This document shows positions 3,001-6,000 of a stretch of 13,403 nucleotides of DNA, piece by piece. Made by a program: the position numbers. The stretch is from a virus (Duplodnaviria; Heunggongvirae; Uroviricota; Caudoviricetes): IMG/VR virus record IMGVR_UViG_2713896778_000008. The stretch is one strand, 5' to 3'. Position 1 is the first letter of the stretch. Each line of letters starts with the position of its first letter.

Positions 3001-6000
3001 TTTTTGGGGAAATTTGTAAACCTCTTTGAGAGGTTCGCAAACTATCAAGTTCACAGCCACTTACTTTAAAGAAGTGTTTTCCTGCAATGAAACGACATTC
3101 ATTACGTTTGAAGTTCTGCCGTATATGTTTTTCTTCAGTTTTGTATAGATTTGCCAATAACCCTGTTGTTATTACAGGGACGTTAGAGTAAGTAACGACG
3201 ACGAGGGATTCTACAGCGAGTTGCATGGTCATAACGACCTCCTTTAGCTTTTTCTGAAATTACCACCTCTGATAGTGGTGTCGGGAGGTTCAGAACGGCC
3301 TAAAGAACCGCGGACTTATTCCCCTTACGGGTGTTGTATTCGTCGCCCTCCCGACATTGTTCGGGGATGTGACAGCACATTGTGCTATCACTGAATAACA
3401 GGCATAAAAAATCCAACACTGACGGGGTTGGTTTTGTCCGCTTTAGAGAGGTTCTGACGCCTCACAAAGATAAATCTACAAGTAACGACCTATAACGTCA
3501 AGCCCGATCGGTTTCGAGCATTTTTGCGTGACGGGCTGCGCCTCGTTCTGTCCAGAGTATGAGGGAGCGGGCTTTCGGGGAAATTTGTAACCCTCTTAAA
3601 GATGGTTGCAAATTTTGTGAGTTACTTAAAGTAACCCGCAAATTTTGTGAGTAGTTTAAAGCTACCCGCAATTCTTTAAGGTCATTACCAACAACTTTGA
3701 AAANNNNNNNNNNNNNNNNNNNNNNNNNNNNNNNNNNNNNNNNNNNNNNNNNNGAATACGCACCGGCTCAGTGCCGTAAAGCTGCGCCAAAAGTTCGGTG
3801 GTAATAACAGGAATCTGGTTATGGGTGATCGGGGAGAGAGTTTCAACTGCGATTTTGGTGGCCATAAGATGATCCTTTTTCTTTGTGAATCATCACCACC
3901 TGCGACGCCAATCGCTTGGTGGTGAACTGTGCAGGGTTGGCGTAACCGGGAAAAAGGAACCGGCGCGGATTGCTCCGCCCCCACACAGCCCACCATTGAG
4001 ATGTGACTGTGCAAACGACAATAAAAAAGACGCTGGCACGTCTGTTGTCGCCTTTTTCATCCGGGACGCCAATCCCGACGCCAGATTTTGCTGGCGTGTG
4101 AGGAATATAGCCCCGGATAAATCATCGCGTCAATCCCCTTGTATTCCTCGCACGATGTCTTAGCCACCGGATATCCCACAGGTGAGCCGTGTAATTGAAG
4201 GTTTTTACGTCAGATTCTTTTGGGATTGGCTTGCGTTTATTTCTGGAGCGTTTCGTTGGAAGGTATTTGCAGTTTTCGCAGATGATGTCGGTGATACTTC
4301 GTCGCTGTCGCCTCATGCCGCCCTCCTGACGCCCTGCCCGATCGCCATCAATGCCGCTTTGGATACGGTAGTAAACATCCGTCGAGGACTGATGAACGGT
4401 CGCCAAATCAGCAGCATGGAGCCTTTACTGTTTCCCTTCTTCTCCAGCCCCGTCGATGGTTCGATAAAATTAATCCGTCCATCAGTGATAATGCGAACTT
4501 CGTCAACACTCTCCAGAGCCTTGCTGAACCATCCGACTGACATATCCTCTGGCACAAGCATAACTACCGTCTGTCGCTGTTGTATGCACTGCTCAGCGGC
4601 TTTTTCCACCCACGGCCTGATATTGCTGTACGGTGGGTTATTCCAGATTGCACCGTGGCTTACCCACTCAGAATTGAGCGCGTCGTCGGCCTCAGTTAGC
4701 CAGTGAGCACACAGAGCATTTTTGTCGCTCGCTGCCGAATCCAGCCAGAATCCAAACTCAATATCCAGTGCATCAAAAAGCCAAAGCGGCGTTTGCCAGC
4801 AGTCCTTGTTGTGTGCTGGCGTATTTGATTTGATAGTCATGCAGCCCGATCTCCCCATCGCGCTTTCATTTTTTCATTTGCAAATCGCCAGAATCTTCCT
4901 TTGTGATATGAGCTTTCGCCATTACAGCAACGACTAATTGACGAACTATCAAATCCTTCTCTGACAGCATCCATAGCTGCTTCATAATAAACCTCCTCCC
5001 CAGTTTTCATGTCAGTAGAAATAACAGCTTTACTGGCAGGATGGTCACCACTAAATTTACCTAGCGATATAGGTATTCTTCCATTTTGTTTATATCCGTG
5101 TTTTGAGTTTTCAGAATGTGATACCCATTCAAGGTTATCAGCCCTATTGTCATCTCTTCGCCCATTTTTGTGATTAACTACCAAGCCATCACAGAACCCT
5201 GTACAGAATGCTTTCGCAACTATCCTGTGGGCGCTGTATTTCTTACCGTATACCTTTATTTGAAGATATCCTGTCGACTTGCACTTGAATGGTTTTACAC
5301 TAGTGCCATTAATTATTTTCTTATATGGCCTCTGTCTGGTTGATGTTACTGTAACTTCCCTCGTAATAGACCTGAAATTTCCTTTATTGCTAACCTGATA
5401 AAATGGAATCCCTTCGATATCTACCCAAACCTCAATCATAATTCCTCCATTCGCTAAGATGAATTGAGTTCATGGCACAATATGCTTCTATGTAGTCCAT
5501 TATTTCGGATATTTTTTTTACAGATAGAGTCGCCGTACTCTCTCTGATGTTTATTAGCTCACCTTCTAACCCTGATATAATCTCAGGGTGCTGGTTGGTT
5601 GCAATCTGCCAACCAGAAACGAATAACCCCTTCCAAAACTCAATATTTCTTGCTTTTCCGTGATATGTAGCCTTCTTACTTATTTCAGATAGCATCGCGT
5701 GAAGGCGTGCATTTTGCCGAATGCTGCGGTTGCGTTCCTGAATGGTTACTACGATTGGTTTGGTTGGGTCTGGAAGAATTTGCTGGATAGCTTGAATGGC
5801 GTTCTGCTGATGGATGGGGCTTCTTAGTTCAAATGTTAGTTTCCTCATCACCCTTAATCCTCTCGAAGTTCTTCTCGAAGTTTTTGGTGTCGAACACTGA
5901 CCACCGACCATTATGAATGGCGTATGCACATGTCTTGTTTTCGTCCTGATAAACCACCCTTACCTTGCGATAAAACCGTGGCTTAATCTCTCTGAATATT

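Follow-up and report, generated by a model that had tools for sequence, protein, structure and literature searches.

We find that the ninB locus of the window (the whole 13,403-nt stretch of viral DNA analyzed here) appears to be a lambda-type ninB overwritten by a two-gene cassette, namely the 3′ two-thirds of a divergent ninB and an overlapping HNH endonuclease gene. From the alignments, the body of the displaced gene (nt 127-414) seems to have been swapped for nt 127-417 of the variant ninB plus the HNH gene, leaving the cassette flanked on one side by the first 126 nt of lambda-type ninB and on the other by its final 27 nt and stop codon. Our preferred reading, to which we assign a probability of roughly 60%, is that an I-HmuI-like free-standing homing endonuclease has spread by gene conversion along with a co-converted, presumably cleavage-resistant ninB allele. 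The initial annotation had described an endonuclease gene that invaded the 3′ end of ninB and now reads into former ninB codons. The reading into ninB codons stands, but these codons come from a different, lambda-type ninB, and replacement of the lambda-type body takes the place of the 580-nt insertion that this account implied.

The HNH ORF (4837-5439, minus strand) encodes 200 residues comprising a NUMOD4 domain, an HNH_3 domain, a C-terminal NUMOD-like/HTH module and a nine-residue NinB tail. NUMOD4 (E = 1.4e-13) and HNH_3 (E = 2.4e-11) both scored above the Pfam cutoff, while the I-HmuI NUMOD-like domain (E = 9e-4) fell under it; this last region aligns with the C-terminal domain of I-HmuI and with an HTH PHROG. 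The I-HmuI structure (PDB 1U3E) matches residues 55-186, catalytic region included (E = 3.7e-14), and phrog_59 covers residues 1-186 only. H90, N102 and N111 are invariant across 22 homologs, as expected of the conserved His and Asn residues in an HNH (beta-beta-alpha-metal) motif, and comparison with the gene of Salmonella phage SEN22 (pN 0.128, pS 0.811; pN/pS ~0.16) points to purifying selection. The ORF is thus predicted to be an I-HmuI-like HNH homing-type endonuclease gene, in line with its earlier identification.

The arrangement at the start of this gene is as the initial annotation had it. NinB ends in SEWRNYD, and by direct reading its stop overlaps the HNH start by 8 nt within ATGATTGA (5432-5439, minus strand; junction GAATGGAGGAATTATGATTGA), with the HNH ATG inside the last ninB codons and the ninB TGA at 5434-5432. 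The GGAGG Shine-Dalgarno sequence of the HNH gene (5444-5448, minus strand) likewise lies inside ninB, in the codons for W-R, 4 nt ahead of the ATG. Start/stop overlaps of this type are kept in all close relatives. The two ORFs are in different frames and the ninB stop precedes the HNH ORF, which is not the layout of an intron- or intein-encoded gene; a search of the entire window with Rfam at the gathering threshold returned no intron family, and hence no group I intron was detected.

At its other end, the HNH ORF closes with ...RFWRFANEKM-KARWGDRAA*, and its last nine residues are identical to residues 138-146 of lambda NinB, which ends ...LALEWKARWGDRAA*, confirming by alignment a resemblance that had been suspected. 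None of 1000 shuffles of these nine residues matched NinB C-termini equally well. The final 30 nt (AAAGCGCGATGGGGAGATCGGGCTGCATGA; 4837-4866, minus strand) correspond to codons 138-146 plus stop of a lambda-type ninB and agree at 29 of 30 positions with the ninB 3′ end of phage HK544, whose ninB-dam arrangement is HNH-free and which therefore supplies the comparison that the initial annotation had proposed. The HNH ORF lacks a stop of its own and continues in frame across the nine leftover ninB codons to the old ninB stop. That stop keeps both its overlap with the downstream start (ATGA) and its position after the GGAG of the downstream gene. The downstream gene in the window is dam, an N6-adenine methyltransferase gene (4313-4840, minus strand; Pfam Dam E = 1e-64) that is 96-99% identical to dam placed directly after ninB in HNH-free phages. 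The remnant contains a GGAG (4854-4851) positioned as Shine-Dalgarno for dam, and the HNH TGA overlaps the dam ATG (ATGA, 4840-4837) within GCTGCATGA (4845-4837). This junction had been called typical of nin-gene boundaries, and the boundary motif GCNGCATGA does occur six times in the window, where 0.69 copies would be expected, and half of the six lie at such boundaries. For annotation, this means that in these prophages the product labelled "NUMOD4 domain-containing protein" carries nine C-terminal residues that do not belong to the nuclease.

The ninB gene of the window (5432-5848, minus strand) encodes 138 residues ending ...IHLSEWRNYD*. The NinB core domain of the NinB/Orf recombination mediators (PF05772) is present, the Pfam match (E = 2.5e-40) covering profile positions 2-129 of 131. 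Lambda Orf (PDB 1PC6) aligns over residues 1-130 (E = 1.4e-31), with near-identity in the N-terminal 42 residues and an overall identity of only ~45%; at the nucleotide level, no similarity to lambda ninB is left beyond nt 126. The alignment stops at residue 130 of the window protein and residue 126 of lambda, and SEW of the former is not aligned with LEW137 of the latter. Relative to lambda Orf, the window polypeptide stops about 12 residues short and is without the end of the C-terminal helix, where lambda Orf has W137, a residue with a part in binding DNA (PMC4118853); residues 138-146 of that helix sit on the HNH protein in the window. The early stop had been attributed to the insertion of the HNH gene, but HNH-free relatives terminate at the homologous place (...NVRFTDRRYD* and, in Snodgrassella, ...KFKDWRKYDMYS*), and relatives with 77% nucleotide identity have the same NinB end and no KARWGDR. 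We also considered whether RNYD* is encoded by the inserted element and rejected this: HNH-free NinBs have the homologous ends ...RRYD* and ...DWRKYDMYS*, and the gene downstream in Snodgrassella is not an HNH gene. The window allele is thus a complete member of a short-tailed NinB subfamily, with its early end as the native state, and the whole subfamily natively lacks the end of lambda's C-terminal helix. A scan of GTDB species genomes with a NinB alignment returned mostly distant Pasteurellaceae and Neisseriaceae NinBs without HNH, usable only as outgroups.

The cassette spans 856 nt (4867-5722, minus strand), from ninB nt 127 through nt 417 and on to codon Met191 of the HNH gene. It has no nucleotide similarity to lambda-type ninB, and all E. 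coli and IMG/VR loci share it at 98-100% identity, regardless of 5′ arm or downstream gene. To its left, ninB nt 1-126 (5723-5848, minus strand) are common to lambda-type ninB: differences from lambda are confined to nt 5-72, nt 73-126 (window 5776-5723) form an identical 54-nt block, and from nt 127 onward the two genes differ every few bases. HK544 matches the ninB, HNH and dam segment of the window only in ninB nt 1-126 (86%) and from the last base of the Met191 codon, directly before the tail, without a break through dam (98.5%). Among 29 IMG/VR loci, the 5′ 126 nt are of two types, either window-type or 98-100% lambda, and with both types ninB nt 127-417 and the HNH gene remain 98-100% identical. 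In one E. coli isolate (L138), the N-terminal NinB residues through ...ERNRS are those of lambda and the tail plus the start of ninC are identical to lambda over 55 nt, and in some E. coli prophages both cassette flanks are 98-100% lambda. The joint between AA(A/C)AATG and AAAGCG has a constant position and, depending on the locus, precedes dam, ninC, ninD or ninE; within the tail, the 3′ half differs with the downstream neighbor, and where that gene differs the right homology arm is just 30 nt long. The locus is thus a mosaic, as gene conversion with co-converted flanks would predict: its breakpoints, at ninB nt 126/127 and in front of the tail, are sharp and its flanks are 98-100% lambda, a pattern that general recombination could also yield.

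Our search of 5,426 complete E. coli genomes revealed the cassette in 77, and its variant ninB and HNH parts were never separated. An intact lambda-type ninB body was found in 1,293 of these genomes, in the same nin-region contexts as the cassette, and ~94% of E. coli prophages with either of the two ninB types have no HNH gene. This sporadic occurrence among otherwise homologous genomes is expected for homing endonucleases. Both ninB and the HNH gene are under purifying selection, and HNH copies disrupted by truncation, frameshift or insertion exist, a decay that is typical of selfish genes. The locus occurs in Stx2a-converting phages of O157, O121, O103 and O111 strains, and the window itself comes from a Shiga-toxin-type prophage. 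HNH genes also occupy the same position beside the same ninB type in Salmonella phage SEN22, in Yersinia, Mixta and Pantoea, and in metagenomic phages, so the possibility that HNH is ancestral at this position, which the initial annotation had held would count against it, is partly borne out. Given this shared position and the saturation of synonymous sites, the ninB-HNH pairing is ancient, and only the joint with the lambda-type flanks, which are 98-100% identical to lambda or HK544, looks recent. The arrangement is a footprint of past movement, and the claim of recent mobility would apply only to that joint and not to the pair.

Whereas the anatomy, the breakpoints, the co-inheritance, the sporadic distribution, purifying selection and the recurrence of such tails are shown by the sequences, the activity of the nuclease, its target and its role as driver of conversion are inferred. 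The HNH gene would be expressed from the delayed-early nin transcript and is probably translationally coupled to ninB. On contact between a cassette carrier, phage or prophage, and a relative whose ninB is of the plain lambda type, the enzyme would nick or cut the relative's allele within the part missing from the cassette, and repair templated on the cassette-bearing genome would copy the cassette in. The conserved ninB 5′ block would act as the left arm, and the ninB tail, together with the downstream gene where it is shared, as the right arm. The ninB of the cassette would retain its recombination-mediator function and presumably go uncut.

I-HmuI, from Bacillus phage SPO1, is encoded within a group I intron, whereas the HNH gene of the window is free-standing after ninB. 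The two proteins are homologous over the catalytic and C-terminal DNA-binding parts, and both have HKGxx(W/F)R(F/Y) near the native C-terminus; the window protein differs by its additional N-terminal NUMOD4 module and its nine NinB-derived residues. Free-standing endonucleases cut some distance from their own gene and are inherited with co-converted flanks, and in the "intronless homing" of the T4-type enzymes SegF, SegG and MobE the nuclease gene lies between or beside conserved genes while carrier and targets differ in the flanking gene (PMC2988022, PMC2790892). The window matches this anatomy in having a non-homologous block between homology arms. It differs in several ways: it comes from a lambdoid prophage of the temperate, Stx type and not from a virulent T-even phage; what travels with the nuclease gene is two-thirds of a gene for a recombination mediator; the nuclease ORF closes with codons left by the gene it displaced; and its nuclease activity is a prediction.

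Lambdoid phages shuffle nin genes at exactly these boundaries with no need of a nuclease, and the spread of the cassette to four downstream contexts therefore requires no homing. Further, microhomology at the original joint (ATG next to AAAGCG) amounts to at most 1 nt, so the first event was illegitimate and not classical homing. Ordinary lambdoid mosaicism would make ninB-HNH a nin module moved by general or illegitimate recombination at conserved gene boundaries, with the HNH protein, inactive or active elsewhere, uninvolved in the spread and the tail a neutral scar. The module does begin exactly where ninB starts and finish at the old ninB stop, its reassortment with dam, ninC, ninD and ninE resembles that of plain ninB, the boundary motifs are enriched, and the tail would persist for the sake of the downstream ribosome-binding site and ATGA coupling. 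We nevertheless consider this explanation unlikely: the HNH ORF is under purifying selection with invariant catalytic residues, two HNH families recur at the one slot and repeatedly carry NinB leftovers of varied length, and the left breakpoint does not coincide with a gene boundary but falls within ninB, beside the 54-nt identical block.

That Orf-family and HNH genes are so strictly paired could instead be a sign of joint function, with NinB/Orf and the adjacent HNH protein forming a recombination-initiating or host-manipulating pair, a two-gene counterpart of known Orf-HNH fusions. In the DUF968 family, an Orf-like module is fused to an HNH nuclease (PMC4118853), and Gp16 of S. aureus phage PhiNM1, a nuclease that depends on RecA, has an N-terminal domain resembling NinB (PMC12817073). 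Of 43 diverse IMG/VR loci, 40 have the HNH gene beside an Orf-family gene (directly after NinB in 34 and after DUF1367 in six), often with overlapping reading frames, and both genes are under purifying selection. However, DUF968 and Gp16 are single polypeptides with a zinc-finger HNH, whereas the window has two ORFs and an HNH of the HNH_3, I-HmuI/NUMOD type typical of homing enzymes, with no match to DUF968. The prophages that manage without HNH, the frequent decay of HNH copies and the replacement of one HNH family by another in the slot also make a functional pair improbable.

We queried the 5,426 E. coli genomes for an empty site with a synthetic variant ninB fused directly to the tail and dam: both listed matches with at least 80% coverage were split by a 580-nt HNH segment, and the other listed matches covered the tail and dam only. 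Likewise, tblastn with the NinB protein against 50,697 phage records gave no close relative lacking the HNH gene. That a 580-nt HNH element was inserted between the EW and KARW codons of the window ninB, truncating it and supplying RNYD* from the element's 5′ end, is very improbable and already largely refuted, for although deleting 5446-4867 recreates the open frame ...SEWKARWGDRAA* and HNH-free E. coli ninB has ...CGAATGG and AAAGCG... contiguous, with empty-site matches that begin 7 nt before the joint, no HNH-free variant allele joined to KARWGDRAA was present among the E. coli matches listed, in the phage records or in a set of 5.8 billion proteins, and the model leaves unaccounted for the native NinB ends of HNH-free relatives (those at 77% identity included), a NinB body unlike lambda past nt 126 next to a tail identical at 29 of 30 positions, and an SEW that is not positionally homologous to LEW137.

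The preferred reading, a homing endonuclease spreading with its ninB allele, may extend beyond this cassette. The I-HmuI-like HNH family is large, ranging from Escherichia to Pseudomonas and Aeromonas phages at 36-100% identity, and, as the 40 of 43 IMG/VR loci show, its genes nearly always come after an Orf-family gene. Among 70 HNH tails, 16 match NinB C-termini at p ≤ 0.01 where ~0.7 would be expected, and a second HNH family in the same slot (HNH_3 plus AP2, phrog_99) likewise has a NinB-like tail end, so that leftovers of 9 to ~20 residues occur across two unrelated families. Two further candidates were set aside. The WRF(A/G)D...AA end of HNH proteins could not be demonstrated to be an old NinB tail (compare EWKARFGDAA), as HKGxxWRF is a native C-terminal motif common to I-HmuI, and short tails such as GDKGKVAA score no better than shuffles. 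A truly split ninB at two loci (L050 and L052; upstream ...AW, tail AFG...) is ambiguous, as the upstream proteins may bear their own diverged copy of the motif. The DUF1367 genes that precede close HNH relatives have no DNA similarity with ninB, and therefore a simple model in which ninB sequence is the target is incomplete. We tentatively suggest that this HNH family may be specialized for the orf/ninB slot in temperate phages, moving as a unit of resistant orf allele and nuclease gene and routinely ending in codons of the displaced gene. If so, the loss of its own stop would preserve coupling to the next gene, and the variable lengths of the NinB leftovers would record separate past invasions and perhaps the positions of cutting. 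That the family settles beside a gene for a recombination mediator may be no accident, since Orf loads RecA at the very type of lesion that the nuclease would make.

Our literature search turned up no publication on HNH genes located at ninB in Stx or lambdoid phages; one published figure legend names "HNH" among the genes of the ninR region. Gene conversion driven by homing endonucleases is well documented for virulent T-even phages and, to our knowledge, has hardly been examined in temperate lambdoid phages, whose mosaicism is usually ascribed to general or illegitimate recombination. The ninB locus of Stx2a-converting phages offers a test case: both arms are predicted to the nucleotide (nt 73-126 of ninB on the left, the final 27 nt and stop of ninB on the right), natural target alleles are plentiful and a natural donor exists. 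Were the nuclease active, it would be one identifiable driver by which nin-region alleles are replaced in Shiga-toxin phages.

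The window ninB gene (5848-5432, minus strand) encodes 138 aa ending in SEWRNYD and overlaps by 8 nt the HNH ORF (5439-4837, minus strand), which encodes 200 aa ending in KARWGDRAA. At their junction, GAATGGAGGAATTATGATTGA, ninB contains both GGAGG and the start ATG of HNH; the HNH TGA falls within GCTGCATGA, which also contains the dam ATG. Every feature noted in the initial annotation was confirmed in the sequence, including the resemblance of the HNH tail to lambda NinB, with the lambda protein ending in a matching LALEWKARWGDRAA. In phage HK544, dam comes directly after ninB with no HNH between them, and this stretch, from the 3' end of ninB to beyond dam, aligns unbroken with the window (98.5%). 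On the window side the alignment opens with the final base of HNH codon Met191, immediately ahead of the tail, and HK544 matches the ORF at 29 of its 30 final nt. Residues 192-200 are covered by no HNH profile, I-HmuI ends four residues past the motif equivalent to window residues 179-186, and shuffles of the nine tail residues never reach an equal score against NinB C-termini. Judged from these alignments, the tail of the HNH ORF is genuine ninB DNA.

Counting from the ninB ATG, the locus can be divided into three parts. In the left arm (nt 1-126), all differences between lambda and the window fall within nt 5-72; nt 73-126 (window 5776-5723, minus strand) form a 54-nt block of perfect lambda identity within a 5' segment otherwise 84% identical to lambda. 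This block (codons ending in IQERNRS), likely a recombination hotspot inside ninB, directly precedes nt 127, from which the two alleles are unrelated. The cassette (nt 127-982, window 5722-4867) comprises variant ninB nt 127-417, including the stop, and the HNH gene up to Met191, and the tail (nt 983-1012) is the last nine codons and stop of lambda-type ninB. The cassette keeps 98-100% identity over its full length among IMG/VR and E. coli loci. Their left arm is of the window type or, in loci L073, L076 and the E. coli isolate L138, 98-100% lambda, and the tail and following gene are lambda-identical in L138 (55 nt) and HK544-identical in L073. The joint of AA(A/C)AATG to AAAGCG was found before dam, ninC, ninD and ninE. 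In lambda, HK544, P22 and other E. coli prophages, ninB of the plain lambda type is followed by these same four genes. The 3' half of the tail depends on which gene comes next: GATCGG before dam, GACAGG before ninC or ninE, and GACCGGGCA before ninD. In Salmonella phage SEN22, the ninB-HNH pair is 77% identical to that of the window, and the joint, here to the ninB end of P22 type, falls six nt ahead of the stop (ATG followed by GCCGCATGAAACAC), which gives a terminal ERMAA. Ordinary shuffling of the nin region would explain the spread to new neighbours equally well. Secondary insertions inside the module occur in some viral contigs, among them about 590 nt in the 5' part of ninB in L085 (1007-1595), with a different NinB N-terminus (type of protein P0006), and about 540 nt at the 5' end of dam in L075 (about 2534-3072).

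A comparison of the window with SEN22 shows saturation at synonymous sites (pS 0.81 for HNH, 0.72 for ninB) and pN values of 0.13 and 0.07, respectively; both genes are therefore under purifying selection and have diverged together. In every NinB examined with at least 56% identity to that of the window (Yersinia, Mixta, Pantoea and metagenomic phages), an overlapping HNH gene comes next. Among 43 IMG/VR loci outside the E. coli cluster, with nuclease homologs 28-79% identical, NinB lies directly upstream of the homolog in 34 and DUF1367, which probably corresponds to the YbcN branch that PMC4118853 describes within that of Orf, in six more. DUF1367 replaces NinB directly upstream of close relatives of the window HNH (about 63-68% identical) in L170, L172, L173, L174, L178 and L053/L190, and the L053 tail (DRHGVRWSEPNPYEVTA) is NinB-like despite this neighbour. 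Many homologs have extra residues past the native end motif, with recognisable NinB ends of differing length such as SDASRLEIEWATRWGKS, AFGTQRGVEWSPTSLGRAA, GTEHGVKWADEAKAA and GDRHGVRWSDEARA; of the 70 tails tested (at least 8 residues long), 16 outscored every or nearly every shuffle, where about 0.7 would be expected.

Such near-obligate pairing with an Orf-family gene, and the fact that nucleases fusing Orf and HNH occur (PMC4118853; PMC12817073), keep alive the alternative that the two genes form a functional partnership. However, the homing-type architecture of the HNH protein argues against it, as does a sporadic distribution: the cassette occurs in 77 of 5,426 complete E. coli genomes, always chromosomal and always with both parts, and an intact lambda-type ninB body in 1,293 genomes of the same set. 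Decayed copies also speak against partnership, the HNH gene being split by a roughly 1.2-kb insertion in L064 (about 2049-3246), frameshifted at the C-terminus in proteins P0124, P0125 and P0127 and only 123 aa long in a Mixta copy, and ninB being frameshifted in L083 and L084. Further, a different nuclease family (HNH_3 and AP2, phrog_99) substitutes in the same slot of other phages, with a NinB-like tail ending in DAKNQAIEWASRFGDKQRAAA (0/1000 shuffles). In loci with this family (L006 3410-3958, L007 3410-3961, L086), the upstream NinB ends in DWRxYD and the nuclease in AIEWASRFGDKQRAAA.

The initial annotation had also proposed that HNH invaded the 3' end of this ninB and reads through into its former codons. 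The ending in ninB codons stands, but the upstream ninB does not appear to be the truncated host, so that interpretation is supported only in part. Window NinB is near-identical to lambda over residues 1-42; past residue 42 identity is about 45% and nucleotide similarity is absent. The protein belongs to a large subfamily in which NinB proteins without a neighbouring HNH terminate at the homologous position, as in Pluralibacter-type (NVRFTDRRYD) and Buttiauxella-type (GIKFTEGRYS) prophages, and the Snodgrassella NinB, whose downstream protein is not HNH, ends in KFKDWRKYDMYS. Aligned to the structure of lambda Orf, window NinB matches only as far as its residue 130 (lambda residue 126), so window SEW is not equivalent to lambda LEW137. 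A natural counterpart of the reconstructed empty site (SEW joined to KARWGDRAA) was not found, and both E. coli matches of at least 80% coverage, among the matches listed, were split by a 580-nt HNH segment.

The window covers the early-right part of a lambdoid prophage of the Stx type. Its genes lie mostly on the minus strand, in the order O, DnaB-type helicase with intein, small ORFs, ninB, HNH, dam, ninE, antirepressor genes, ninG and Q, and a plus-strand CI-like repressor gene (Peptidase_S24 and HTH_3) is located upstream. Many Stx2a-converting phages and phage TL-2011a are 100% identical to the region, and phage P27 (99.8%) has the same three genes annotated as NinB, HNH endonuclease and Dam. 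The 797-aa replicative helicase (6927-9320, minus strand) harbors a second homing-type element, an intein-like insert with LAGLIDADG_3 and Hom_end matches (about residues 393-454), and DnaB_C matches the helicase in two stretches; the DnaB of L050 gave a weak Hom_end_hint match. Between ninE and the antirepressor genes, minus-strand Rfam matches above gathering score (3272-3355, 3915-4000, 4023-4097, 4058-4110) to sRNA-Xcc1, C4 antisense RNA, isrK and c4 a1/b1 target look like P1/P7-style C4 antisense control of ant. A short ORF (3498-3671, minus strand) repeats a motif starting LQISPK(A/T) of the ORF6N/P22AR antirepressor gene (2558-3232, minus strand), suggesting a partial duplicate or remnant of such a gene. 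A 285-aa protein (12531-13388, plus strand) with an NYN ribonuclease-like domain (E = 6.8e-9), encoded on the same strand as the repressor gene, about 550 nt further downstream, is possibly a prophage-encoded accessory or defence gene product. Runs of masked bases (about 1440-1490 and 3710-3760) appear as X runs in the NinG ORF (1114-1761) and an antirepressor-like ORF (3662-3865) and leave the ninB/HNH finding unaffected, and a partial tRNA match (1-54, minus strand; RF00005, 35.3 bits) is cut by the window edge.

Free-standing homing endonucleases leave a footprint in which the nuclease gene and a diverged copy of its neighbour form a block absent from targets, flanked by homology where conversion tracts end (PMC2988022, PMC2790892). 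The structure in the window matches this footprint, with the same block and homology flanks. We hypothesize that HNH nicks or cuts lambda-type ninB inside the region replaced by the cassette, and that the linked short-tailed ninB would give both resistance and Orf function. The first joint was illegitimate, because useful microhomology is absent. The in-frame run into old ninB codons may persist since translation ends exactly at ATGA, and these codons would also keep GGAG (4854-4851) for the next gene. As read from sequence comparison, the locus is a well-delimited case of a known class, in which a free-standing HNH endonuclease of homing type is accompanied by a co-converted flank. It is modestly unusual in one recurrent respect, the nuclease ORF terminating in leftover codons of the displaced gene.
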